The notes: generated by a model from the sequence alone, not told the origin. Positions 13,985-58,600 are shown, counted from the first letter of the whole stretch. The stretch is DNA of 59,420 bases, filler included, from Sphacelaria rigidula (GCA_964200075.2; 3 parts of 3 records of this genome joined end to end with filler, not necessarily neighbours in it), one strand, 5' to 3'. Numbers and translations: made by a program.

Positions 13985-14439
13985 CACTATATTCGTGAGA
14001 TTCAGAGTGTAACATCGAATTCAGAGTGAGACCCGAAACAATCGACTTTGCCGTCGATTTTGACATCGCCACAGTTCGAGGAGGAATGCGTCCAGCTGGT
14101 GAAGCGGTGGCTTAATGGAAGCTGTCACCTACACGATCAATTTGACACATCACTTAGTCGCAACGACGTAGTCCATTGCAACAAAAGATGCCCTCTTTCA
14201 GGAAAAATCCATTAGTGCCTGAAACAGTTTCAGTTCCGAAATGCCCCCCCCAGGCGTCAAAATGCTTTGTGCGGTGTCTCACCAACCAGACCGTCGAATT
14301 CCTCGAATGGGGTAGTGTACGGTAGCTGCATGCACAGGACGTGTGCTCAAGCAAAAAAAAAGAAGTTGCCTATTAGGAACGCTAGAGCATCCACTCTGAA
14401 TCTGAAACTACCGACGTTCTGAATTTCACGAATATAGTG
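13985..14439 (+). mobile_element. MITE copy 1 (~450 bp), TIR ctatattcgtgagattcagag
   Basis: Terminal inverted repeats at both ends; near-identical inverted copy at 16504-16930. Confidence 0.85.
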
Positions 14440-14483: not shown

Positions 14484-15858
14484 CACGAATATTGCATACG
14501 TAGGACAGCTCATGAGCTACCTCATCTGCGGGCGGTAGCTCACTTGTAGTCAAACATGTACATGTGAGCTACGTCCGATAGCTAAACACAAGGTGAACGT
14601 GCGCTGATGAGCTACGAGTTGGTAGCTCACCAAGGACGAAAATGAGCTGATGAGCTGCGGGTTGGTAGCTCATGTAGCTCTCATAGCTCACCCAGGACGA
14701 ATCTGAGCTGATGAGCTACGGGTTGGTAGCTCACCTATCGCAAACGTGCGTAGCTCATGAAGCTCTCATAGCTCACCCAGAGAAAACATGCGCGGATGAG
14801 CTACGTCCGGTAGCTCACCCAAGGCAAACATGTCTAGCTCACCTAGCTCTCATAGCTCACTCCGGAAAAACGTGTGTAGCTCACGCACTTGTTACATTCA
14901 CTCAGGGAAAACACATGCGGATAAGCTACGTTCGATAGCTCACCCAAGGCAAACATGTCCTTCTGTGAGTAAGTGTAATCCTGTCTTCCACATCGACTGC
15001 CTGTTGCGAAGGATCTAGATCCACGGCATTATTTCCGACCGAAGCGCGGCTAGAGCTGCTGCCCCCCGCGGTCACCATGCAGAGCGAATTGTGTGCGTGT
15101 GTGCGGTTGTGTGTATATGTGGTGGCTATGACGCGGATGACTTCTGATGCGCCATGTTAATTGTTGATGTTTACAAAAAGCAAATTCATCGCTACACGAA
15201 ACGGAACAGGTGTGTGCACATCTAACCCTTGTCACGTACTTACAATATCAACGTGCATGAGCATGGGAACAGAAATAACTCCAAGATCGGCGTGGCTCCC
15301 GTACCTCTTAAGCTCAACCAGCGCAATCATGCGTAGGTCCCGATGCTCTTATAGCTCATGAAAAGCAAATATGTGTAGTTCATGCATCTCTCATAGCTCA
15401 TCCAGGGCAAACATGCATAGCTCCTGCATCCCTCATAGCTCATCCGAAGCAAACATGCATAGCTCATGCATCCCTCATAGCTCACCCAGGGCGAATATGA
15501 GCTAGCGAGCTACGGGGTGGTAGCTCATGCAGGGCAAACATGCGTAGCTCATGCAGCTCTCATAGCTCACCCAGGACGAATATGAGCTGATCAGCTACGG
15601 ATTGGTAGCTCATCCAGGGGAAACGTGCGTAGCCCATACAGCTCCCACAGCTCTCCCAGGACGAATATGAGCTGATGAGCCATGGGTTGGTAGCTCATGC
15701 AGGGGAAACATGAGTAGTTCATACAGCTCTCATAGCTCACACCAGAAAAAACATGCGTAGCTCATGTAGCTCTCATAGCTCACTAGAGAGCTACGCTATA
15801 AAAGAGCTAGCTCGAGCTATAGGGAGCTGACCTGTCCGACGTGTGGAATATTGTGTTA
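14484..15858. mobile_element. AGCT (tagctca/tgagcta)-rich subrepeat element with imperfect TIRs, interrupted at ~14960-15350
   Basis: Dozens of tagctca/tgagcta motifs; ends cacgaatattgcatacgtaggacag and ctgtccgacgtgtggaatattgtg; flanked by a 41-bp direct repeat. Confidence 0.7.
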
Positions 15859-16503
15859 GATCTGGTGAGCCGTCTATGGGTAGTCTCTGCCGCCAACAGT
15901 GCATTTTTTGGTATCTACTACTATGGGCATTGCCGTCAACAATCGATTGCTCTCGGGAGCACCTACCGACAGCCAGTGACGCCAACGATAGGTTTTGAAA
16001 AATAAATTGCTCACTGCAGTTTCATGACATCAACAGCAATACCCCTTACACATGAACACGCAACGACCTCAGGCGATAGCTGGCCATGACTTCTGTGGAA
16101 TAAGGCAGAAACATATATCGAAAAATGCAGCCACCTTAGTGGTCAGCAAAAGATATTGGTGGCCGCGATTTAGATTCTAAAGTGACCCTAAATAGACATT
16201 ATTGGGCGCAATTGGTATCCTCTTGTGACCAACAATATGTACTGGTGGCCGCGTGGTAAATCCTATTTTGATTGGCAATAAACATTGGTGGCCCTGATTC
16301 AGAGCATATTTTAACGAATAAAATGTATCGAAAGACAACTGAGCCCCTTCATTGTCACGGCAATGATACATTAACATCATGTCCCTTATCCCTAATCTAT
16401 TGTCGCCTACAATAGTTATCGATGGACTTTGATGCCAGTCGATTATGAGTGACAATGAACATTGATACGTCAAATTTCCGGGGCTATCGCAGCGCCAATA
16501 ACA

Positions 16504-16930
16504 ACATATTCATGAGATTCCGAGCGTAATATCGGATTCAGAGTGGATGCTCTAGCGTTCCTAATAGGCAACTTTTTTGTTGTTTTTGCTTGAGCACACG
16601 TCCTGTGCATGCAGCTACCGTACACTACCCCTTTCGAGGAATTCGACGGTCTGGTTGGTGAGACACCGCACAAAGCATTTTTACTGTTTCAGGCACTAAT
16701 CGATTTTTCCTGAAAGGGGGCATCTTTTGTTGCAATGGACTGACTACGTCGTTGCAATCAAGTGATGTGTCAAATTGATCGTGTAGTTGACAGGTTCCAT
16801 TGAAGCCACCGCTTCACCAGCTGGGCGCATTCCTCCTCGAACTGTGGCGATGTCAAAATCGACGGCAAAGTCGATTGTTTCGGGTCTCACTCTGAATCCG
16901 ATGTTACACTCTGAATCTCACGAATATAGT
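16504..16930 (-). mobile_element. MITE copy 2, inverted relative to 13985-14439
   Basis: Reverse complement matches copy 1 along its whole length except for a short indel. Confidence 0.85.
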
Positions 16931-19744: not shown

Positions 19745-19844
19745 NNNNNNNNNNNNNNNNNNNNNNNNNNNNNNNNNNNNNNNNNNNNTTAATTAATTAA
19801 NNNNNNNNNNNNNNNNNNNNNNNNNNNNNNNNNNNNNNNNNNNN
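19745..19844. other. Artificial 100-nt contig spacer N44-TTAATTAATTAA-N44
   Basis: Seen directly; the 12-mer puts stop codons in all six frames. Confidence 0.97.
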
Positions 19845-24700: not shown

Positions 24701-27700
24701 TCGGCGGAACGAAGCGTCTCTGAGGATAATTCTATGATATCCCGACGTGTGAAGTGCTGTGCATATAAAAAAAAATGAGCCAACATGATAATCCAGAGCG
24801 TGTTCGTATGGCGATATATGGTGAAAAGATGCCCGATCGAACCTCGCGTTAGTTGCAAAATATGGAAGACTACTGGGCTTGAGTGTGTGGATAATCTTTT
24901 CCCCCAGTCATGAGATCACATTCTACGGGGTATTTCGTTCTTGACGTCAGTGTGTCGCACTTTGAATCTTTCTAAGCACTGTCGGCCACAAGGCATTGTT
25001 TTCTGGCTGGGTTGGTTGACGATGAAATGTACTTGTCATCACGATGAATGCGGGTAGATGTGGCCTGACTTGATCGAATGATGATGTCGGTTTTTGAAGC
25101 TATCTGCGGATAGACTCGTCTTTTGGTTCCAGGACCATAGCACATGACAAACCGACTCAGATCTAAGGCGTTGCATATTGCGTCACCTGTTAAGTGTGGG
25201 TCACGGGGCACCATTTCCCAACTGGATTAGTTGCTGATGAGTTAGGTTGGTCGTCTCGATACGTGCAGTGTGAATGTGGGACGCCACCAGCTGGCTTGGT
25301 TGCGAAGGTGATATCGGTGTTCAGTTATCTCAGTAGAGTACAGAAAGCTACGGGGCACTGAAAACTATGAGTATGTGATCGATAACCACCAGTGTAATCC
25401 CAAAATTATATTCCGGAGAGGAGTTTTTTCGTATGATGACACTGGTTGGTCTTTCATTTTTTACAGAGTCAAGAGGGGCATCTCTACTACTAAACGTGCT
25501 GGACTGCCCTTTAATTTCGGTTCCCAAAGAGTGAAAACACCAGAGGTGCCGAAGTACGGTCGGTCACGACTTGTGGTATTGTCTGCTAGAGGAGAAGTCC
25601 AAGAAGAGGGACGCTGTTCGAAAAGGGGGAGCGAGGAAAATTTCCCGACGCTATCACGCAGTACCGGTTGCTAGTTGAGTTGAATTGTCGATAAGAGCTG
25701 AAACCATACTAGGTGTGCACACAAGTTTTTCACGACGTGCCTGAGGAAGGATTGTATCTGACATCACCCGTTTCGGTTGCTGGTCGAGCTGCACACTGGC
25801 AGAACTGGATCTATTGTGAGAAATTCAAGCATCTTTCACACATGTCTCAGGAAGAGGTGTATCTGGTATCACCCGATTCGATTGTTGGTCGAGCTGTAAG
25901 CTGACAGAACTGGGTGTTCAAGCATGTTTCGCACGACATGCCCAAACAAGGAGTGTATCTGGTATCACCCGTTGTGGTTATCCATCGAGCTGGAAGCTGA
26001 CATAACTGGATCTATCATGAGGTATGCAAACATGTTCACACGACATGTCTAAACAAGAAGTACATCTGATTCCACATAATGTATCGATAACTGGGACGTA
26101 AACGTCTGACAACCTGTGAGATAATATATTGAACTGTTGAGATGTAAATGGTTTGCGGAAAATATATGTTTCTGGCGTTTGAGACATGGTGACTGATATA
26201 TATCTGGATCTTTCCATCCCCCATGTTCCCGGTCGAGCCTCACTCTTCGGTGAGGCGCAATCCCCAAAATCGTTTTTCCAATAGGTCTCCGGCTTGATGT
26301 TGGGGGGGATCGCGAGTAGCGACGAGCACAAACCCTCCGCTGCAAAGATCTCCTCTCGATGGACAGTGGTGGTAATGGAGGGAGAGGACAATGCCTGTGA
26401 TGCAGCAACCCCATTTCCGTGGCTCGAGACAGGGGGGGCTGTTCATGATCTTGCATGCCGTAGTCGTATGACCATTGACCTCGCATCCCTACAAAGCCGG
26501 GACGCAGCACGCCAGGTTCTCGCCGGAACAGGCTCGGGACGAGGGAGGGAAGAGCAAAAAGAAAGGGGGGGAGGGGAGGCGTACCTATTTGTTGCTTGCC
26601 TGAGTCGTTGACCATTGATCACGCATCCCTTTCGAGACGGAGCAAGAAGAAGGGGGAGTGGATGATGGTGATTTTGTGCTTACTTGTGCTTCTTGAGAGG
26701 CGCCGAGCAACATCGCTCCGCCGGGCGCGAAGTAGGTGTTCGATAGATGGATGGCGCGCTTGAACTTGGTTTGATTTGAGTAAATTTGGAGTATTTCGTG
26801 TTCTGAAGAATTGTGTGTTGAGGCTCTGGAAAATGGGACATGTGTACTGCGTGATACGTACCGTCTTGTTGACATGATGCGGGCGCACAAAATGGATACG
26901 AGCCAAACGAGTCGTTTTGAGAGACATGACTTCGTACTGAGTTTCACGCATGGCGTGAAATTGCCTGAACCGACGTTCAGTATGCGCTGTAGTGATTGTA
27001 GTAGTCGATGGGACATAGTGTGCCCATAGATGTTTCTGTTCTTGAAATGTGGAATACTTTGGACCTGTCACCGAGTTTTCGGAGAATATTCCAGTAATAT
27101 ATACAGGTGCGACCTTTTCAAAATGGGACGAACCTATTGCACGCATTTTTGGAATTTTCCTGGATGAGAACAGGTGTGACATTTCAAAGCGACCGCACCT
27201 GCAGAATGATGGCGTGGCGATAAAAGGGTGTTTGCTCGAGGGTTGAGTTTTGCCTTCAACGTTTTTTACAAGTCCACCTCCTGATGTGCCAAGTTAAGGG
27301 GACGTGTTCCTGTGAACAGGATAACCAGTAGAGTCTATGGTGCTGGGTCTACACTGTAGTGAAGCATCCGTGTTCTCTCTTTTGACCGTTACACGGGGCA
27401 GGGTTTACTACCGTAGTTGGCGTGTTGTGGGACCCAGGTACGAATAGCCTTGACGGTCGAGCGTGAGGCTCTGCCTACTCGCTCACTCCCTTCTCTTTGC
27501 CTCGCCTGGCTCTACGATACTACACTTCTACACCATACTGATCGGTTGACACCCGTATCCTCTGATCGATTATCATAGTCGTGTCCATTAAACCGAACCG
27601 CTGGATTACAGACGAAGAAACAGCATTGCAATACGAATAACACCTCCTCAGTATCATAATCAACAATGGCCGGTTTCCCGCACGAGACCCGCTCCTACAG

Positions 27701-39582: not shown

Positions 39583-39682
39583 NNNNNNNNNNNNNNNNNN
39601 NNNNNNNNNNNNNNNNNNNNNNNNNNTTAATTAATTAANNNNNNNNNNNNNNNNNNNNNNNNNNNNNNNNNNNNNNNNNNNN
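39583..39682. other. Artificial 100-nt contig spacer N44-TTAATTAATTAA-N44
   Basis: Identical to the first spacer. Confidence 0.97.
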
Positions 39683-45723: not shown

Positions 45724-46437
45724 ATGACCAACCACTTCTTCACTGGAAAAAGCTCGAAGAAATCTGAAACCCCGCGTGGCTCCGGCAACTACGCAGCGTT
45801 TGCGGCTACCTCCTCGGGTGCTCCCTCCGGATCAGGATCAGGATCGCTGCACAACCCTAACGGTTACGGGAAGACTTCGTCGCCGCAAGACACCGCACCT
45901 GAAAAGACCGGCACGGGACCTTCGCCAACAGCCATGATGCCCCCGAGCAACGGACAACACAAAGCGCCGACTTCGTCACAAAAGGCCCTCAGCCTTTTGG
46001 ATCAGGTGTGTGCACACCTCAGTGGGGTACAGCCAGTAAACAACGCCAGACATCTTTTCGAATGGTCACAACCAGTGTGCCACACAAAACCGCGCAATGC
46101 AGAGGTAGTACCGGCTTTTATTGGCGTAATGCTCGACACTGCAAAACTGGCACATGGACACCGCACTCGTAGTACGATCGCTTGCAAAGCCGCGCACATG
46201 TCGCCCGCACAGCACATTGCGAGGAGCGTCGAATATGACTTGATACATGTAGTCCTCAGAACAACTGCACCAACAGTTGCCGGGATAACCGTCGTTGAAA
46301 AATTATATCGTGATACTCTCGTCATGGAGGTGAAGATGAACTTTTGTTGCCCGCTTCGGGTGCCTTTCAGCTGTTGTGACGCTTCAGCAAGGGTATCTAC
46401 CACGAAAAGCCTACACGGTACATACATGGACACGTGA
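45724..46437 (+). CDS. Unidentified 237-aa ORF (Ser/Gly/Pro-rich N-terminal half); possibly TE-derived or a gene fragment
   Basis: ATG-initiated, longest clean ORF in piece 3, protein-like composition; no motif recognised. Confidence 0.3.
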   Translation: MTNHFFTGKSSKKSETPRGSGNYAAFAATSSGAPSGSGSGSLHNPNGYGKTSSPQDTAPEKTGTGPSPTAMMPPSNGQHKAPTSSQKALSLLDQVCAHLSGVQPVNNARHLFEWSQPVCHTKPRNAEVVPAFIGVMLDTAKLAHGHRTRSTIACKAAHMSPAQHIARSVEYDLIHVVLRTTAPTVAGITVVEKLYRDTLVMEVKMNFCCPLRVPFSCCDASARVSTTKSLHGTYMDT

Positions 46438-47579
46438 GTGAACCAGATGTTAGCCACCCCATTCCGGCTCATGACGGGTCTAGACAGCTTCCCTTCCATC
46501 AGGTTCGGACCAACTGTCTTTTTTTTGCAACCAAAATTTTGCAACTCAATAATGCTGTGGCAACGGCGACCACACGAAGGTCAACAAGATTTTCACGGCC
46601 GCGGTCCGTCTGTGGGTCATTTGCTGGCACATGATATGCATCTGTACGACGGGCGGAAGTCGTCGCACATAACGGTCTCTGGGCTATCGATCATGCTGAC
46701 CAATTTCTTCACGTGTCATCTCGGACATATCTATCCTGAGTTGGCTTCATTTAAATATATTTATATATATTGAGCACGGATTGACACCAGCACCCGTTGC
46801 CCTTTTCCCCCGGTCCGCTGCGCGGGTAAAAGTCATCTTTCTTCTCAACAACTCATGTTTTGTCCCTGAAAAATCAGGAGTGATCTTGATACAGGCAATT
46901 GTGCTTCCACCCAGCAGTGATGATGATACAGGCATCCCACCTCCTCACAGTCTCCACACTTGGCCCGTCAATCCGGGAATCGTCAGACATCCATTTCGGG
47001 CTGGGACGTCTTCATCCTCCCTCTCCGACCTCGGACGGAATCTTGGGTTACGGCCGGGGGGACCACCCCACCTTTCCTTCTACCGTAACCAGATGTGCAT
47101 GATTTCTCCAAATACTCAAAAGTTTCAAACCTCGGCACAACATACAGCAACCCATCAGCAGGGGAACGAACATGCGATCCAGTGTACACCCGGCTGTTTA
47201 AATCGCCATCTGTCACGCAGCAGCCTGTGGAGCGTAGTATTCTACAGTAAAGCAGTGAGATATATTCCAGCTTGGTCTTGAACAGCACAGGGCGAAACCA
47301 GGGGAGGGCGTAGTACGTGTGTACCTTAACCCGGCGATTACACTTGTCCACCTAAAAGAAGAATTAATGCCTGTTGACATCATGATACCCCACTCGGGTT
47401 TGATTTGCGTAGTAAATACGTGTCAGCGTCCATGTACTTGGTGGACAGGACACAGCGTCCTTGCACCAGCCTGTGTCATCATGGAACAAATTATTTTCAA
47501 GCCTTTCCGCTGTTGAACCTTGACGACCTTGTGTGATACTGTTCTTATCGCGCGCCAACAAAGAATCCGTTTCGTCCAA

Positions 47580-47581
<2 letters not shown>

Positions 47582-47615
<34 letters not shown>
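47582..47615. repeat. (TG)n microsatellite
   Basis: Seen directly. Confidence 0.9.
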
Positions 47616-47616
<1 letters not shown>

Positions 47617-49804
47617 CCTGGCCCCTGTCCCGTTTATTCACAGACGCATGCGGCTGATATCTGATACAAACTTTTTGAAACTTGGAAGAGCACAAAAATT
47701 GTCTCATACGGTCTCGTTCGACAACCCGTTTCATGTGCACAAGAACCCACCCCACCACTGTCACTTGCTGTACTGCATCTACATCATCGACAGTCTGCAC
47801 CAACAAAAGCACAAGCGCACAGATAACCTATGGCAGTAAACCGGGTAAGCGTCTAAGAACCGTAGATTATCATGAGCAGGATGTTCTCTCGTGCCTTTCC
47901 CATCTGGACAGGTCGATATGTCTGTGCACGAGGCGGGAGTAGCTTCGACGTGGTTGATTTATGCACTAAATATCTTGAGGATGAGCACACCCCTCGCGGC
48001 CCACGCTTGTGGTGATGTACTAGTGGACGACTGTGCCGTGCTGGGGTGCAAACGGCAGCCTGGGTTGGAGGATACGTTGGTGGAACAAAAAAACTGCCCG
48101 CAAACACACATCGCTACCCACGGTTGCCAAAACTCTCACATCGGTGCCTCCTCACGCCTCTTGCACAGACGGTACAACAGTAATACGGTGGTGACAGAAT
48201 TCCCACATGTATCTCGGTGTCGTGCTGTTGGACCAGATGAAAGTACCCAGGGGCAACTGAGTGCAGACATGCCCGTTTGCCTTTGATCGGCACAGTGTGC
48301 AGCGCCACACTGGCTGCATCGTACTGTTGAATGAGTCTTGGTGCCCCTGTGCCACTGAGTCGTTTCGTTCGATGCAATCTAAGAATCGGGGGGTCCAACA
48401 TTGTCTGCACAACTTTCTTGGATACGTTGAAAGCACTTCCCATCACGGGTTTGGTCTCACGTACAGCGTGAGACCTCGACTGAGTTATGCGATGCTCACT
48501 TCTGTACGCATTCGTGTACCGGTTGCTAATCAAGCGCTGGACCATGTTCCGGCACAAGTTCTGTACAGCGCTATATTCTTGCGACTGCTTTCCGCCGGAC
48601 TGTGCGCAAACCACCTCATTTTCTTTGGTAATCATGGCGCTGTGTTACACGAGGCACGTTTTGTCCCGCATGCGTGTTGTGAAACAGCCCGTCGAGCCCG
48701 CCAAACCGTCACGGTTTGGATACGCCCTCGGGATGAGGTACTGTACTTATTTTTCTGCTGAAAATTATGCCGACCAAAATGCAGTTGACAGTTGACCGAG
48801 CGTGTGGCTTACACTTGTATCGTTTGAGTACGCTATGTGGTGTTGGTTTTTCGGTGCCGAGAGCGGCACCGTAGAAAGTCCAACTGCTGTCCCTCTTGAA
48901 ACGAAGTATTTCTCCTGTCCCAAACCGATTCGTGTCAGAAGTTGTATCTAACCTACGGAACATACTTGGCCGTGTTGAGCACATCGAAAGGTGTAGGGTG
49001 GTGTTTTTTTGAGGTTCGTAGGTCCTGGTATTTGAATTCCATGTCTGTCGATTTACAGGTGTCTCGTCCCGACACCTCATGCAGACATTTTATTTGTCCG
49101 GTTGGTATTTCTCGATGTTTGCCGACACGAGAATGTTTTTGACGGCCCTGAAGCCCTGGTGTGTATGGAAATAATCTTGGAAAGACCGGACATGTATGTG
49201 TTGACGGAACATGAGCCGGCGTTATACAATTTTTACCAGGGCACTTCACCATCTCGATCATTTTCTGGGGCAGATGGCGTATTGCTGGGTACGTACAGTA
49301 CTCGTATGCTCATCACCACCGTACTCGACGTGGGTCATCACATCGTTATCTAGAATCGAGTATGCTACCTCCGCTCGGGGACGTGAAAGACAAGATATTC
49401 TTCACCGGTCAGTAATTGCGACATGATTACAGTCCCCACCCGGGAGACAAGTGTGTCGTGTTCACTAGTCGTATTTGCCTGCTGTCTGGTTCAAATATTT
49501 TACTGGCATTATTTGTTCCACAGCTTCAAAGATTTGGCACCGCCTCAAACTACTAAAATAGTTCTCTTTATCTGAGTATTATTCCACGGCTTCGAAGACT
49601 TGACATCGCCTCGAACGACTATTATAGCTTACCCCACCTCTCGAGGGTCTCGAACATCGTTAATCAAACTGGGCCGTGTCCCATCTCGCCAAGGTCGACT
49701 CTAGCGGGAGACGAACTGCATCTTGAGGAGTTGAGGCTGATTCAATCGCGGTCATTGGAGTGGGCGTGAATTCTCCGACGTGCCGTGAATTTGTACAATG
49801 GAGG

Positions 49805-50127
49805 TGGGGGTGGTGTGATCGTGGAATGTTGAGCCGTTATGCCGTGTTACTGACTGTCGCACCAAAGAAGTGTCATGACTTGTCGAGGAGATGCGGTTGC
49901 CTCGAAATGAAATCACCTCGTTTGCACGGCTCAAATGAGTGTACGGATGATATATCACTACCGCGCTGGCCGGATTCCGCACGAGTGGATGTGGGGTCGC
50001 GTGATCGTGGAATGTTGAGCCGTGTTGGCGTGTTACTGGCTGTCGCTCAAAGAAAATGTCAAGGCTTGCCAAGAAAATGCGGTTGCATCGGAATAAAATC
50101 ACCTCGTTTGCACGGCTCGCATGAACG
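49805..50127. repeat. Direct duplication, ~135-bp homologous blocks with 186-bp period
   Basis: gtgatcgtggaatgttgagccgt...aaatcacctcgtttgcacggctc occurs twice. Confidence 0.85.
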
Positions 50128-52216
50128 AACTGCATATACCGCTGTCCCGCCGGCCGGAACCAGCACGGCCAGGAGTCGAATAGCCCACAGGTCAGTGGGG
50201 AAAGCCCCGTGCCACACCCGGCGTGGTACTTGTTGTGCTTCAAAACTGACAGAACTCTAATTCCGAAGAGTAGAGGACTGAATGTATTGTAATTTCAAAC
50301 TACGCCGAATGTCTGGCACTTCCTTACGAAGCTGACTTGTTCCGAAAATCAGGGCTGTGAAGCTGACTTTGTTCACCACTTCTTTCTCCGTGACTCCACG
50401 AATCATTTTTGTCAATATCTCGAGGATTTTCCGCACGGTCTTGCCGTTGCCTGCGCAGTTCACTCACTACATGACTTCTGCTAACTGCGCTCCCCTGTAG
50501 CTGCGAGGATGCTGTGATGCACGGTGGTCATTGCTGTAAAAAGCGAAATGATCACCAAACATGTCTTCGATGCGCACTCTCTGAGATGCAGAGCCCAGAT
50601 TTCAAGTAATCTCAGGGAGATGACCAATATTCAATTGTTCAAATTCCCTGTTCGAGCGTATCTTTCCCGGGAAGACGATGATGAATTTGACACGCTTTGC
50701 GTTGGTAATCTCTAGTTGAGCACACAATCGTACGAGTCACATGTCTTGCGGGTTTGGGGGATTTATCATGTCATGTCGTGTTGAGTAGAAAAGTCCACCG
50801 ATTTAATGATCATTCAATCTACCGTTTTGTTCCATAGCAGCTCACGGATTTATGTCTGAAATTAATCAGTTCGGCGAATGATCTTGCTTGTCTCCTCCCG
50901 TCTTACCCACATCTTACTCACGGGGAAGTCACATCCAAAGCAAAAGAAATGAGACTAGTACAGTATATCGAATGAACAATCCACCCCCCCTACAAGATGG
51001 AACCTATCGGCTATTGTAATGAGCCTAGAAGTCGATACTGCACGCAGTACCCTTTTTGACAGCGTGTTCTGTTCGTATGGAATGAGTCCGTCTTGACGAC
51101 TGGCGCATGACGAGGACGTGGCTACGTTGTAAGCTTGAGGCAAAGTCTAATCTGGAATCTTGAACATGGAAATTACTGCCGATTTAACGAATGACCTACT
51201 TCCGCTGCCCGAGGGTCAACCTGCCGACGTTTGGACGGTCAACCCTTGGACGAATAGAGTGGGTCATCTAATGAATCGGCATGACTTTTCCCCGGAAAAG
51301 AATGTATGATCCAGATGGACTGTGTTCGCTGTTCGCAGTCCAAGGATGAACATGAAGGTGTCCAACCGGGAAGTTGATTCTCCTACGCTGTACGGTTTTT
51401 ATACTTTCTAACCTGATCACGAGACACTCTTGCGGAAAAGTAAATGCTGAGAGAAAATTCTCCTTCTTGGTCCCCACGGCAGCAAAATCGACGTCGGAAG
51501 CATTTGTTCGCCTTGACTCTTGTTGTACCCTTGAAATCGCGGTGCGGGTAGTTTATCTGTATTATGTACTTCGAGGTGAACTTTTTTCCAAGTAACAATT
51601 GATGATTCAGCCGTGACCTACCTCCGCGGTTCAAGGCTTAACGAACACACGAGGCGCGAAAGGTGTGGAGCGAAGAGCAACATTAGTAGCGAATAATTCA
51701 GGTGCAGTCGCCAACACTGAGGGGGATGAAGCCTTATCACGTACTCTGACAATCCGTTTTGCATGATGGTGGTACCTTCGTGTGTCTCCACGGTCTTCGA
51801 TTGATAATGTAAGCCTGTGCGCTCGCGCAAGACTTCGCTCACCTGAACCTGATGTCATGTTGCAAAGGCGGATCATGCACTATACTTTTTTCCCGTCGTC
51901 GTCGATCGTTGGTTTTTGTTCGGTCTACCTCCCTCGTGCCCGTCCAACCTTACTGTTTTATGCGCTTCCCTACAGCGACTGTTTCTTTTGTCTTGTTTGC
52001 CATGTGACCGGTGACTGTATCCCTGAGAGATCATTGCATAAGCAACATTCGTGGAATCGATCTATCAAGTGACAGTGCGGGGTGACAAAAAAAGGAACAC
52101 GGATATATCACGGACGATTTTCATTCCGCTGCCTGAAAAGTTTCTGCGCCCAGTTGGCCCCTAGACTGCGAGATTACTTTTTCTGGATGCATGCGTATTT
52201 TTTTCACTTGAAGTTG

Positions 52217-52282
52217 ATGCCGATTCAACAGAAGACTAACCTCGCGGCTGAGGGTCAAGAGCCACCTCTCATCACCCTTGAG
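52217..52282 (+). CDS. Bactofilin exon 1 (MPIQQKTNLAAEGQEPPLITLE), start tentative
   Basis: In frame with exon 2. It is preceded by a T-rich acceptor-like site ending at 52213 (alternative acceptor 52231). The donor GTTCAT is weak. Confidence 0.6.
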
Positions 52283-55200
52283 GTTCATGACACTGTTCCC
52301 GCGTAGGGTCTGTCTGTTTTTCGAGGGAAGAGGTCAGCCCACGATACGCGCCAGCTTCATTGTAGGAGCTAGGTGCACGGTGTTTTCCCGTACTTTGGAA
52401 ATCGAATGTACGATCGCAGAAGCGTCTTGGTAAACGTGAGGTGCGCGCTTCGCTCCGCATGACATCACATCGTTCGCGCAGAAACCCGAGTCCATGGTTG
52501 CGGAAACGCTGAAGATGAAGGGTGAACTTGAGTTCACCCGGCTATTGCGAGTGGATGGGCGGTTCGAGGGAGACCTCATCACTGACAACGGAAGCCTCGT
52601 CGTTGGACCCAAGGGAGAGGTTGTTGGAGACCTCAAAAATATGAAGGTGCGTGTCCCTGATGATGGCAAAGTGGGTGAGATCTTCCTGTCAACGTGTACC
52701 GTCAACCCCTCAGACCATGATGAAGACAGGTGAGCCATCTTCAAGCAAGAACACTTTTTGCCAATCCAACCAGTGAATCACTTTCTCTCTGGAAAAATGG
52801 ACATGAAGAACTTCAGAAGTGTGTGCGCTCGCTCGCTCGCCGCCTCCGGTCGGGGCGTAAGGGCGTGGACGGGGAGTACGGAAGGCTACGTTGGTACTTG
52901 ACGCAGGGTGACTGCTGGTGGGATAGCGGATGTTAACGACAAGTACCGAATTTTCATTGTGATGTATGATGGGGAATTCAGCATGCGTTTTATAGTTTTC
53001 GTGTGGGAGAATTGTTTCATCATATCGGTTACCGGGTTTGTCACATGACAGTTTTTCACGGTTTGAGGGTGATGGCGATTGGATGGATGACGATCCCAGT
53101 GCAAGCCATCTTGCCGATCCCGCTTCGTATCAAACATCGCAGCCACGCACAGTGCGGTGATGAGAATGATCGATTCCATGATTACGCACCAAAATAAGCC
53201 TTGCTAGTCGTGTGGTTGGTTTTTCTTCTCGTATGTAAAACGCTGATTCTGTTTGGCCTCCCGGATGTGTCGACTGTCGTATTATGATGACGTCTCTTAC
53301 TCGTGAAGTTGGGGGGAGGGGAGACGGGGATTGTAGCCCACGTGATCTTCTCTGGAGGTCAAACAGTTTCCCAACCAGGTGTGGTGAAACTGTTCTAGTG
53401 GTTTCTGACGTACTTTCTGACGCATTCCCCGCTAAGCCCTTTAGTACAGATCTCATCCTACCCTCAAACTGCCTTATTGACTCATCGCCAGAGAATCTCG
53501 AAGCGCTGCCAATTTGCCACCGGAGCTAGGCGCGTTTGTTAATGGTATCCCGTATGTTCCCGTGCTTCCGTCATGTTGACTTCGGGTTGGGTGAATTAAC
53601 AGGAGGTTTATGTGGAAGGTATCGTGCGCGGGAATGTGTTCGCCAGCGAAGTCAAGGTGAGGGGTCAACCTCTAGGTTGAAACAGTGAAGAGGAACAAAT
53701 GATTCAAAGCGAAACAGATAGCGGGGCGGGGGTTGTACTCATGATCATGCATATAGTCACAAGACCGTGGACCTCGCATCCCTACAAAGCCGGGACGGAG
53801 CACGCCGGGTTGTCGCCGGACCAGGCTCGCCAATACCAAGCGCGAAGCGCCGTGGTGTTATCGGCGAGACGCATGAAGGGTGAGCTGAATCCTGCTAAGA
53901 TTATTCGGTCCGAAGCCTGCATTATCTTGCATTCGAATGGCAGCCTCCAATGAGTTGCTTTATTTTCTGTTGCCCGTTTGTGGAGAGTTAGCAACCAAGG
54001 CGACGTGGCGTGTCCCAATATTCCTGTCCCCTTGCTTTTTGTGAAAGACTCGAAAATATGCAGTCGAATCGAATTGGTCGTTACGAGGCCATATCATACG
54101 TCCACGGCTTTCATGCTCTCAGGTGGTTTCAAGTCCATTTTATGAGTAGTTGCGTGTGACGGGCAGAGTCAACAACAGAAGCTCGGCTTTTTTTCGCGAA
54201 CCGAGCGGCTGAATAAACGAAGGGGCACGCAACCTCTATGTTGCTGACAACCATGCCAAATACCTCCGTTTTACAAAATTATGCAAAACCCAAATGGTCC
54301 ATTCGCAAATACGTATTCAGCCCTGTGGCATTGATCACGAACTGAGCACAGGGATTCAAACTCTGCCGACATCACCCCGTCTTTGGCATGAAGCCTATTT
54401 TTTGTCGTCGAAACTTGCGCATCTCATTCTGTGGCGGGTTCCATTGGCGGAGTTGCGTGTTGGAGTGGACAATCAAATTGCCAACGCGCTCGTGCACAGT
54501 AAAGGCGGTGCGAAAACTACATGTGGTTCAAATCTGCTTCGCATCCTGTGTGCTGAAAGTCGCTTTTCCCACTTCTAGGATAGCGCGCATCTTGAGAGTT
54601 GCTGTGCTCTCCACGCCCCATCACCATCTATACATTGAATACGGCAAGTTGACGAGACAGGACATGCGCGATTCGGCATCTGATTCAGTACTACAGTTGT
54701 CACTTACGACATATGCGTTCTGGGCGACTGTTGATCCAGCATGCTGTGCCAAACACCGACGTCATCAAGACGATGGAGGCGGCTACACTGGTACAGTCTG
54801 TACTGTCCGTGCTGAACTGTCCATTGAACATATGTGAAGGAGTTTCACTTCACGAATTTCGCGTAGTCTTGTCGATACTGGGCTTGCAAATTCGCCCGAA
54901 CCCCAACATGGCATGACGAACTGAATAAGTTCAGCCGCACGGACTCCTTCGAGTTTTTTTTTTCGATAGGACACGGCTTGAGCAAAGCAGAAGGTTTTTC
55001 ATGATGAGATCCGATTACTTACTCTTGATCGATATGATAGTTGATCGGCAGCCACCCCCACTCCCCGTCTGTTGTGCCCCGTGGTCAATCTGTCTCAGGT
55101 GAAGAACAATGGTATGCTCTTCGGTGACATCCAGTGCCTGCAACTCACTCTCGACCCGACGGCCTCTGTGAAGGTGTGGATTCTCGCGACAGCGTGGTGT

Positions 55201-55696
55201 GAAAATGATCCGGCCGGCTTGGGCTGATTCCTGAAAGAAAATGGAAATTAGTACCATTAAATCTTGACGTGAAAATGGACGCATTTTGCGTGCTGAGATT
55301 TGATGGGGTGTGGATATTTCTTGTGAAGTCATGAGTCAATTCTAGTAATGAATCAGAGGCGAATCTCGCGTGTCCCGTCTCGTCAACTTGCCGTATTCCA
55401 TGTATTGATGGTGATAGGGCGTGGCGGACACAGCAACCCTCAAGGAGCGCGCCATCCAGGAGAAGGCGGACGCCAAGAAGGCCGCTGCCGCCGCGGCCGC
55501 CGCCTCAAACGCAGCATCGTCGAACGGTGCAGTAACGAAACCTCCCTCGGCGGCACCCGTGGCATCCGCGGCGGGAGGAATGGCACCGACGTACGCATCA
55601 GGTTCGGCCGTGATGACGGCTGGCGAGCGAAGCATCGCCCCAGTTACTAAGTCACGCCCGACGAGGATCGAAACCTCGATGCCACCGCCGTCTTGA
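52217..55696 (+). CDS. Bactofilin (polymer-forming cytoskeletal, CcmA/DUF583-type) domain protein, 5 exons, ~212 aa
   Basis: Exons 52217-52282, 52482-52646, 53603-53656, 55099-55173 and 55418-55696, all joined by phase-0 GT-AG introns. Spliced core: SMVAETLKMKGELEFTR/LLRVDGRFEGDLITDNG/SLVVGPKGEVVGDLKNMK/EVYVEGIVRGNVFASE/VKVKNNGMLFGDIQCLQ/LTLDPTASVKGVA, i.e. six ~17-aa G-[DEN]-[LIV] windings. An Ala/Pro/Ser-rich tail follows. The start codon and first exon are less certain. Confidence 0.88.
52482..52646 (+). CDS. Bactofilin exon 2 (windings 1-3)
   Basis: Acceptor cgcag, 165 nt, KMKGELEFTRLLRVDGRFEGDL, donor GTGCGT. Confidence 0.92.
53603..53656 (+). CDS. Bactofilin exon 3 (EVYVEGIVRGNVFASEVK)
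   Basis: Acceptor aacag, donor GTGAGG, 54 nt; supplies the expected fourth winding; not in the ORF track. Confidence 0.88.
54572..54693 (-). repeat. Inverted copy of 55343-55465 (bactofilin last-intron 3' end plus start of exon 5)
   Basis: Core 54611-54693 versus 55343-55424 differs at about 9 of 83 positions by manual alignment; weaker similarity extends ~40 nt into the exon. Confidence 0.9.
55099..55173 (+). CDS. Bactofilin exon 4 (VKNNGMLFGDIQCLQLTLDPTASVK)
   Basis: Acceptor tctcag, donor GTGTGG, 75 nt; windings 5-6; not in the ORF track. Confidence 0.88.
55418..55696 (+). CDS. Bactofilin exon 5 (end of domain plus low-complexity tail)
   Basis: Acceptor gatag, GVADTATLKERAIQEKADAKKAAAAAAAAS...PPPS*, GC-rich coding-like composition. 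Confidence 0.8.
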   Translation, partial: GVADTATLKERAIQEKADAKKAAAAAAAASNAASSNGAVTKPPSAAPVASAAGGMAPTYASGSAVMTAGERSIAPVTKSRPTRIETSMPPPS

Positions 55697-58600
55697 GCAT
55701 CTGGCTGTTGATGCTGCTGTGCGATAAAACTGCGCAAAAAACTTTGTAGAGATTCGTTTTCTTTCGTTTCGTTTGAATTGCTTAATGTGTTGGTGCCAGG
55801 GAGATTGGAAACGGGTGAGGGAGAGGGCAGGTTTACTGTTGCCACTGCTGGGGTGTAATGTGGTACTCGTATTTTACATGTACGTTTTGGTCGCTCGTGT
55901 TGCATCGTATCCCCCTTACCTCCGGGTGCATCGACGTTTCTGGGAACAGTTTTGCCCACTCATGAAAAGTATTTGGTGATGATTCCCTTTCTTTCGATTG
56001 ACATTTCGCAATCGGCCTATTATTTTGTGGCTTGTATCAACTATATATTGGAGTTCAACACCGAAACAAACCGTGTTCCCTTGACTCGTGCGGGATTGTC
56101 GACCCAACTCTATCGTTGCCGTCATTTTACATTCTCGTTCTATGTGTGATCCTCGTTAGCTTGCAGCCAGTGGTGCAACGTAATGTGTTGGCCAGGCTCC
56201 TTACATATTCATCTACATTTTCGGCTGTTTTAATTGGTGCCCCGAGATTGGTCCGCATTCCCTAAAGGAGTGGGTTTCGCATGGGCTCATGTGCTCATTG
56301 GATCTGTGTTTGGGGCAGATGCATGCACATTCCTGGAGAATTGAGGTCACGTTCATTGTAGCGTGGGGTGTTCTTTTTCCTCGGCCTGTCTCCGCCGGGT
56401 GTCGGCGGGAAAAACGACAGTCGTGAGTGTATTTTGTCAGAGGTGAATCAATAGTCAACCAGTACAGATATTTTATCCACGTGCTGATTGCATGTCGAAC
56501 GTGGCAAATTTGGACGGGTGTGATGGGGAGTGGTGGTGCGATCTTTGATGTTTTACTGTTCTCTTGTCGGGTGATGGTGTTCTGTTTCTCCGGTGGCTTC
56601 ACTCGGTTCTTGTCGTCCCCCATTCCGAGTCTTTTCCCGAGTTTTCATGCGATTAGGTGCACCATGGAATTAAAGTGTGCGGAAATGGAGGTTGAAGGTG
56701 GTATCGTCGCTGCAGCCCCATGTGTTGAACTTGACTGCAGGCGTCGTGGAATGTACTCGGTAACGGAGAATCAATGAATAACGTACCCCGACTTGGACGT
56801 GTGCGCTGCCCTCACCCTTGTTGCGTTCTCCTATACGTCGACGTTTTCTTGAATCTGTTTACCTCTCTGCTGCGCATCCTTTACTTCAAATGTCCCTCAG
56901 GCTTGATATTGAGTTCCATAGGGTTCCTGTATTCGGGTAGTTCCGTACTTTTCTCGATCCCATACCTATTGCGGCTGAGTGATTGCACTGCGTGGTGCTG
57001 TTTGCATTTCTCTTGTCTCTTCTGGGCGAAATCTAACCTGAGTGCAGTGACGGATTCGCTTTTCTTTAGCAGTTGGGTTGATTTCGAAAGTGAAATAGTT
57101 TACTTTTGAGGAGATATTGGTGGAGCTAAGTATGATTTTTTTGTTTAATTCTGGTAATGGTTTCTCCCTTCAAGTGCCCCCCCCCCCCCCAGTCCCGACG
57201 TTTCTGTGATGTTTCATATGTGTTGTGTTGGGCTACCATTCCCCGGTATTACTGACCAGAAATCAGTCGTGAAGAGGTTGACCAATGTGTGTACCTGAAG
57301 TCCCTGTCTCGCTGGCGAAACGAGTGAAGTTCACACTATTGAAATGTACTCTATGGGAAGGTGGCGACCAGTTTATGCGGGCCTATAGTATGCCTTGCTG
57401 CCTTCTCCTGGAACCCATATCGTTATACGAGGAGCGCTGGATTTGCAGAGCGAGGAAAAGAAGCAACGGCGCTCGTGACGTGATGAACGGAAAAACATTG
57501 TTCGATTCCTCATGTCTTGACAGTTTTTGTTGGGGTCGGATGTTGGTGATTGTCGTGTATCACTGGAGACTCGTGAACAGAAAGATGAATGGTGCATGAT
57601 AGTATCGTTGTTGTTGTCCCTTGTGCTGGCTAGTACTATAACCGCTTCGATAGGAAGGCGTAGGGTCGGAGACGGTGTGTGCAGACAGGGAGGGTATAAC
57701 ATTTTGTACATCATTGTATATGCCCAATATTTTTTACTCGACCCTTGTTTTTCATCCAAATTGGTACCATTATGGTGCTTTTGTTTTCGGGACTAGATAC
57801 ATATTTATATATATTTGTGGAGCGCAGTCGCGGGACATTTCGCGAATAATTGAGGTCAACTTCACACGTGACACGTTGCCTGGGTAAGACTTTGTCCTCG
57901 TACTTGATTGATATCGAGTGTTGTGGAGGAAACGTTGAATGATAATGAAAGCATGATACGAACACAGGAGGTACCCACCATGCCGAACACACCGAAAGTG
58001 TGTGCCTTGCCCTCCCATGAGCGCACCTGAGCCTGGAGGTGGCATGATGAAAACGTGAAACTGCTGTACGGCAATCCGATACAGGACCCGGGGTTCTGGA
58101 GAGAGCGGACGAGATGTGATACATGACCAAAGTTTCCTTCGGCTCCCCTCCAGGTGAAACGATTGATGTCAGGGGTGAGCTTGACATTCATTTACGCAAG
58201 GGACACACGCCCTGGCTTTTATTTCGTGTCCCCACAAGGCAGATCGAGTACGATCCGACATCACGGTACTTGAACCGTCTCGATGATCAATCCGTTGGCT
58301 GTCGACTTACTTCAAGTAACCCGATGGAACTCGAAGGTTTCCTATGCACCGATCCGCTGTACTGTACGGTATGAAGCCCGACATATGGCGGTGTGAATAA
58401 AGCGGTATACCTAAGGTGAGGCGTCCGGAATTTGCGTCCACAACTCAAACCCGGCATATGACGGTGGCCCTCTTGAACCGGGTCGAGCCCTGTACAGTAC
58501 GGTAACCACCTGTCTTAGACCTTGTGTCAGATTGATCAATCAATCCGCTGCTAAGGCTAACTCTCACGGGAGCGTTTAAAATTTTAGTTTGCAATAATTC

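Follow-up and report, generated by a model that had tools for sequence, protein, structure and literature searches.

In single-copy Pack-TIRs, as described by Tan et al. 2021 (PMC8277862), TIR elements contain host DNA that was mostly captured from nearby (57% within 15 kb), 68% of the cases carry microhomology, and a median of 4.6% of the element is deleted. Harbinger elements have been reported in Ectocarpus, where TNA duplications are given as their classic pattern (PMC12477816). Inverted pairs within introns are described as looping out exons or covering splice sites (PMC13019027, PMC2724269, PMC8052449), and a model for the birth of microRNAs by inverted duplication has been put forward (Allen et al. 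2004, as cited in PMC4513859). According to the latter report, inverted-duplication small-RNA loci were sought in the brown-algal lineage and not found.

Here, we describe a bactofilin gene in a 59,420-nt stretch of the Sphacelaria rigidula genome (hereafter, the window), which comprises three contigs joined by N runs (19745-19844 and 39583-39682), with the gene located entirely on contig C621. Intron 3 of this gene contains an antisense copy of the gene's own last splice acceptor, lodged in the remains of a transposon. The explanation that we favor, with a probability of about three in four, is transposon insertion followed by template-switch break repair and drift, with splicing tolerating the resulting duplex. 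The copy is probably a scar of repair that is tolerated and does no harm, and not a splicing switch. The locus adds a further case to a known class of local templated insertions.

The bactofilin gene and the copy of its last acceptor

The five-exon model of the gene (Table 1) translates exactly to protein P0001 (284 aa), which is labeled as belonging to the brown alga Sphacelaria rigidula, and the product of exon 2 matches the Pfam bactofilin family (PF04519; 36.4 bits vs. a cut-off of 27.9, E 6.5e-9). Bactofilins are known in stramenopiles (10.1101/617639). Assembled contigs from runs X1 and X10 contain the GT..AG joints 52646>53603, 53656>55099, and 55173>55418, and the DNA-like run X9 shows no joints; X1 and X10 were taken as spliced RNA solely from these joints, their tissue and library type not being on record. 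In run X5 (organism B), pieces of the gene cover exon 2 and the 3' region only. Intron 1 (46006-52481; 6.5 kb) is far longer than the other introns and includes a direct repeat at 49799-50167, and the joint between exons 1 and 2 falls outside the stretch covered by read contigs.

Table 1 Coordinates of the bactofilin exons, the transposon parts, the inverted copy, and its junctions in the window
Feature	Position	Strand	Basis or remark
Bactofilin exon 1, coding part	45724..46005	+	Five-exon translation equals P0001; outside the read-covered stretch
Exon 2, start of bactofilin domain	52482..52646	+	PF04519; spliced joint to exon 3
Exon 3	53603..53656	+	Joints in runs X1 and X10; acceptor pyrimidines 5/15
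Transposon, left part	54047..54576		Aligned from reference position 26 onwards, with the outermost 25 nt of the left terminus lost; small deletion inside, near 54550
Left junction, 5-nt microhomology	54572..54576		Shared between the element and the source's minus strand (55461-55465)
Antisense copy of intron-4 end and exon-5 start	54578..54699 (fringe to 54711)	-	104/122 identical; single copy; absent at 30 sister loci
Right junction, ~24 nt	54712..54735		Filler or decayed copy; source sought, none significant found
Transposon, right part	54736..54978		Recognizable right terminal repeat, then TGA; alignment to sister copies
Exon 4 (75 nt, in frame)	55099..55173	+	Spliced joints and translation; inside the predicted duplex loop
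Source of the copy: final 81 nt of intron 4 (including the acceptor AG) and initial 40 nt of exon 5	55337..55457	+	BLASTN match
Exon 5, coding part including stop codon	55418..55696	+	Spliced contigs extend to at least 56800; translation

Using BLASTN, we found that 54578-54699 is the reverse complement of 55337-55457, with 104 of 122 positions identical (85%), one gap, and an E value of 7e-37; the ungapped core spans 98 nt at 87% identity. A looser alignment extends into a decaying fringe (54567-54711 against 55327-55470), beyond which homology is not significant (151 of 500 and 493 of 500 shuffles were as good), and the two arms are 638 nt apart. The inverted match that an earlier note had read from the sequence is therefore real, with a core identity a little lower than the ~89% it gave. 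It described the source as the last 75 nt of intron 4 and about 15 codons of exon 5, whereas the actual extents are 81 nt and 40 nt (13 codons). As the note had also observed, the acceptor AG is changed in the antisense copy, where it reads GG.

The copy and its source are unique. When either arm was used as a query, only two places in the 244-Mb genome matched, namely the arms themselves, and a longer query across the source (55200-55480) also returned two matches, so the parent is unique and not itself within a transposon. With only two genome matches, the copy cannot be a transposon in its own right, which answers the earlier note's condition that a high genomic copy number would mark it as a transposable element. 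An assembly artefact was also ruled out, in view of 18 differences between the arms in 122 positions and of contigs of run X9 over 54307-56800 that list no other letters; this run is possibly from the same strain as the assembly and thus provides no test of polymorphism. No variant letters are listed in the run contigs for either arm.

The exon-5 acceptor (AG at 55416-55417) is poor in pyrimidines, as the earlier note had stated, with six in the 15 positions from -18 to -4. The acceptor of exon 3 is poorer still, yet it splices normally, so the exon-5 acceptor is not special within this gene, acceptor strength being gauged against the gene's own acceptors only. A literature search on brown-algal splice signals returned nothing usable.

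The host transposon and the capture junctions

When the bactofilin gene was compared with 800 kb of sampled genome, the parts of intron 3 that flank the copy on either side both aligned to one other locus. The family to which this sequence belongs has 897 candidate places in the genome, of which at least 40 loci were scored (the copies there hereafter called sisters), and its full copies are 788–886 nt long with terminal inverted repeats at both ends. An exact 3-nt TNA duplication is present in 6 of 17 full sisters; the window copy retains the right end only. The longest stop-free frames in the sisters range from 102 to 153 codons. Aligned to a full copy, the window copy covers positions 26-857 of 858, with no recognizable left end. 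It differs by 15.8% from the family majority (26 sisters: 6–15.5%), and its closest relative among the 40 scored reaches about 80% identity at best. The window copy is old and cannot move.

Compared to the non-autonomous PIF/Harbinger elements described from Ectocarpus (PMC12477816), the family shares terminal inverted repeats, TNA flanks, a length of about 860 nt, and the lack of a long frame, as well as hundreds of candidate copies and an intronic, degraded state; the window copy differs in being truncated and in carrying an insert. We interpret the host as a putative decayed, ~860-base non-autonomous Harbinger-type element, a superfamily assignment made from the ends only. In six other Harbinger-type copies (L094, L099, L103, L104, L116, and L120), another terminal repeat follows directly, an arrangement that suggests that copies inserted beside, or within, the ends of one another. 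Elsewhere in intron 3, positions 53720-53972 contain a very high-copy repeat that is abundant in both the spliced-RNA and the DNA-like runs, is matched by 15 other sampled stretches, and also occurs at 26434-26536. This repeat has no Rfam match and is possibly a SINE or MITE.

The state of the transposon before capture can be read from its sisters, whose alignment to the window stops at 54561-54576 and resumes at 54736. Of 30 sister loci, 28 could be anchored, and in these the interval that measures 230 nt in the window is 106–122 nt long. Internal insertions of 40 nt or more were found in none of 29 sisters (chosen as best matches to one copy and hence leaning towards intact copies), and the window copy has gained 122 nt. 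The alignment score of the insert is at most 31 against sisters and 169 against its own source. Because the sisters align on both sides without the insert, it represents host DNA added to a pre-existing element. The alternatives in the earlier note, a neutral duplication or a transposon, thus miss the actual arrangement, in which single-copy host DNA is lodged inside a transposon.

The break is internal, at about reference positions 560-615 of 858. The microhomology at the left junction, found after the fact, arises in 0.5% of random-breakpoint draws; a 2-nt gap and a single change lie just beyond it. Set against the filters used for Pack-TIRs, the element includes a net 122 nt of internal non-transposon sequence (100–5000 nt required) with one TIR element on both sides, and the parental copy is unique and outside any transposon. 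Breakpoint microhomology, the gap-filling filter, is present on the left (5 nt; post hoc, with the 2-nt gap beside it). The left end is missing where both termini should be covered by at least 10 nt, and identity to the parent is 85%, below the 90% that serves as a filter for young cases. Owing to these last two filters, we did not file the locus as a strict Pack-TIR.

Nevertheless, the locus resembles single-copy gap-filling Pack-TIRs as described by Tan et al. (PMC8277862) in many respects, i.e., more than 100 nt of host DNA in a TIR element, a unique, nearby parent in cis (<1 kb), junction microhomology, an internal break, small element loss, and no amplification. In contrast to these, it comes from a brown alga rather than an animal, has lost its left terminus, shows no visible target duplication, and falls short in identity. 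In addition, its parent is the host gene's own splice acceptor, captured in antisense. By this analogy, the anatomy is that of a gap-filling capture of nearby DNA, similar to a single-copy Pack-TIR.

How and when the repair took place, and that its product is neutral, we infer as follows. A non-autonomous Harbinger-type transposon would have inserted in intron 3 and started to decay. At or after insertion, a break or stalled fork inside the element would have been repaired by template switching, in which a few bases of the broken end annealed to the opposite strand ~0.9 kb downstream, and about 120–145 bases were copied across the start of exon 5 and the end of intron 4. The copied end would then have rejoined the transposon with the loss of a dozen or so element bases, so that the element came to hold the gene's last acceptor in inverted form, after which the arms drifted apart.

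Predicted duplex and rival explanations

The earlier note proposed that the pre-mRNA could form a duplex of about 120 bp with exon 4 in the loop, and folding predicts this structure. The fold of 54540-55500 pairs both arms (-403.7 kcal/mol, z -10.75) and was equaled by none of 20 shuffles. The duplex itself is predicted at about -197 kcal/mol in sense and -206 kcal/mol in antisense, such that the antisense strand is as stable.

The substitutions between the arms show no sign of maintained pairing in the transcribed RNA. Among the 17 in the core, 4 give G-U pairs, 5 give A-C mismatches, and 8 are transversions on the transcribed strand, and a bias towards G-U is absent (p = 1.0; 5 vs. 6 when the fringes are included), although this comparison covers only 9–11 transitions. 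The longest perfect run is 22 nt, as expected by chance (p 0.36). In the exonic part (gene, GVADTATLKERAI; copy, GVESTATLKMRAI), five of seven mismatches alter residues that are kept by three other brown-algal genera. The A, D, and E of the gene are retained in Scytosiphon, Ascophyllum, and Pylaiella, implying that the changes arose in the copy, and each change in the copy weakens the pairing. A single result runs counter to this: the intronic parts of the arms differ at 10 of 81 sites, well below the ~29% expected for a capture of the element's own age followed by unconstrained change in both arms (p 3e-4). A later capture or a constrained acceptor region would explain this low divergence; selection on pairing or conversion between the arms would fit too. 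A metagenome scan for orthologous introns returned one distant locus (53%).

Given the same origin, the copy could have been co-opted or could exert a real side effect, with pairing in the nascent RNA over the exon-5 branch and acceptor region delaying the removal of intron 4 and lowering or timing bactofilin output (through nuclear retention or decay), or favoring an exon-4 circle. The strength of the predicted duplex over the acceptor, the closeness of the intronic arms relative to the age of the host element, the lack of single-copy inverted pairs this strong in 80 sampled stretches, and reports of inverted intronic pairs that alter splicing in animals (PMC13019027, PMC2724269) all speak for such a role. 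We nonetheless consider it unlikely, because the joints listed for the two spliced runs are all canonical, introns 2, 3, and 4 are all represented by contigs over intron sequence, G-U bias is absent, and the acceptor is not unusually weak for the gene. Neither exon-4 skipping, nor an alternative exon-5 acceptor, nor a back-splice was found among the joints listed for X1 and X10, whose assembled contigs drop rare forms. The low-depth contigs over intron sequence cover introns 2, 3, and (in X10) 4, with depths that cannot rank parts of the gene; in X1, the intron-4 bin has no cover, and contig depth yields no retention rate. A major alternative splice form is therefore unlikely in the X1 and X10 samples, and the intron retention, exon-4 skipping, or circularization raised as possible by the earlier note received no backing, its fallback of a neutral local inverted duplication fitting best. 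Exon-4 skipping would in any case be awkward and the least natural of the outcomes, because it requires the exon-5 acceptor, which would lie within the duplex. The locus shares with the known intronic pairs (PMC13019027, PMC2724269, PMC8052449) complementary arms that flank an exon in one pre-mRNA, but differs from those described there in that one arm is the downstream acceptor itself and that no alternative form occurs among the listed joints. Because the copy lies in a lineage-specific transposon insertion, any control that it exerted could not be deeply conserved.

Highly improbable, in our view, is that the duplex is diced into small RNAs (a proto-microRNA born by inverted duplication, or hairpin siRNAs) that silence the gene's own RNA or chromatin. 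The predicted duplex is long, long transcribed inverted repeats are described as a source of siRNAs and 75% of Ectocarpus microRNA loci as lying in genes, mainly in introns (PMC4513859), and Ectocarpus small RNAs are reported to associate with transposons (PMC12477816). Against this, the 638-nt loop contains a whole exon, so that the duplex would exist before splicing only, and every 21-nt exonic window has at least three mismatches to the mRNA. Furthermore, a search of Rfam gave no matches at E 0.1, the Ectocarpus report describes no microRNA derived from genes or transposons (PMC4513859), and small RNAs are said to favor intact elements (PMC12477816), which this one is not. The model of Allen et al. 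2004 (as cited in PMC4513859) likewise involves an inverted gene copy and a possible long duplex, but here the gene itself provides the second arm and the loop includes an exon, and the mechanism went undetected in Ectocarpus according to the citing report.

A further alternative, which we regard as quite improbable, concerns the route of capture and leaves the relic equally neutral: either transposition brought about the capture (through abortive excision, or through gap repair once transposase had cut), or an ordinary break repair happened to fall within the element. Chance is helped by the fact that ~22% of the sampled bases are dispersed repeats, meaning that a random insertion often lands in one, and transposase-dependent gap filling makes some single-copy cases according to Tan et al. 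(PMC8277862). However, the break is internal, where excision would predict a terminal one, and the composite was never amplified. Template-switch repair inside a resident transposon, followed by drift, is the account that we retain. Minor, nuclear, stage-specific, or small-RNA effects of the duplex may nevertheless occur, and it is doubtful that the antisense acceptor captured by this dead transposon, in the form of a 120-base duplex, would tune bactofilin in some life stage as a splice-masking antisense or a source of small RNAs.

As a relic, the locus provides a clean brown-algal example of local templated capture in a TIR transposon whose sisters still reveal the empty site. It suggests that splicing can remain apparently normal despite a predicted duplex of about -200 kcal/mol across a 3' splice site, and it cautions against calling intronic antisense copies regulatory. 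If the copy acted on splicing or yielded small RNAs, a direct path would lead from transposon repair scars to gene self-regulation; the splice-masking or small-RNA reading, if true, would mean that gap-filling capture had created cis RNA control in a single step.

Inverted pairs and related sequences elsewhere

To place the arrangement in its genomic context, inverted pairs were counted in 80 sampled stretches of 10 kb. Some inverted pair was present in 29 of them, mostly formed by repeats, so self-complementary sequence is ordinary in this genome. Strong pairs without another match in the sample occurred in three stretches; two of these (L047 and L067) proved to be dispersed repeats and the third lies within a tandem array, leaving no single-copy inverted pair of this strength after follow-up. 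Four weak pairs of 41–117 nt were also observed (L040, L042, L085, and L089). The arrangement in the bactofilin gene is uncommon, and its rarity is no sign of function.

The window includes another inverted pair, formed by two copies of a ~450-nt element (13986-14435 and 16506-16930) with terminal inverted repeats of ~43 nt and 421 candidate places in the genome. These copies bracket a tandem array at about 14600-15900. As a dispersed repeat, this pair was ruled out as a comparable case.

The genome contains at least five further bactofilin-domain loci (L003-L009; seven matches on six contigs, this gene included), which constitute a small gene family. Inverted pairs were sought in 2–3 kb around the seven matches, which include exon 2 of this gene, and none was found at any. 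In the annotated Ectocarpus orthologs (P0004, P0006, P0009, P0017, and P0019), the motif GVTDT at the start of exon 5 appears twice, about 90 residues apart, the second occurrence being preceded by Q and followed by the conserved continuation. In Ectocarpus, this acceptor region may thus have undergone a direct duplication of its own, perhaps giving two tail lengths. The motif is single in Scytosiphon, Pylaiella, and Ascophyllum.
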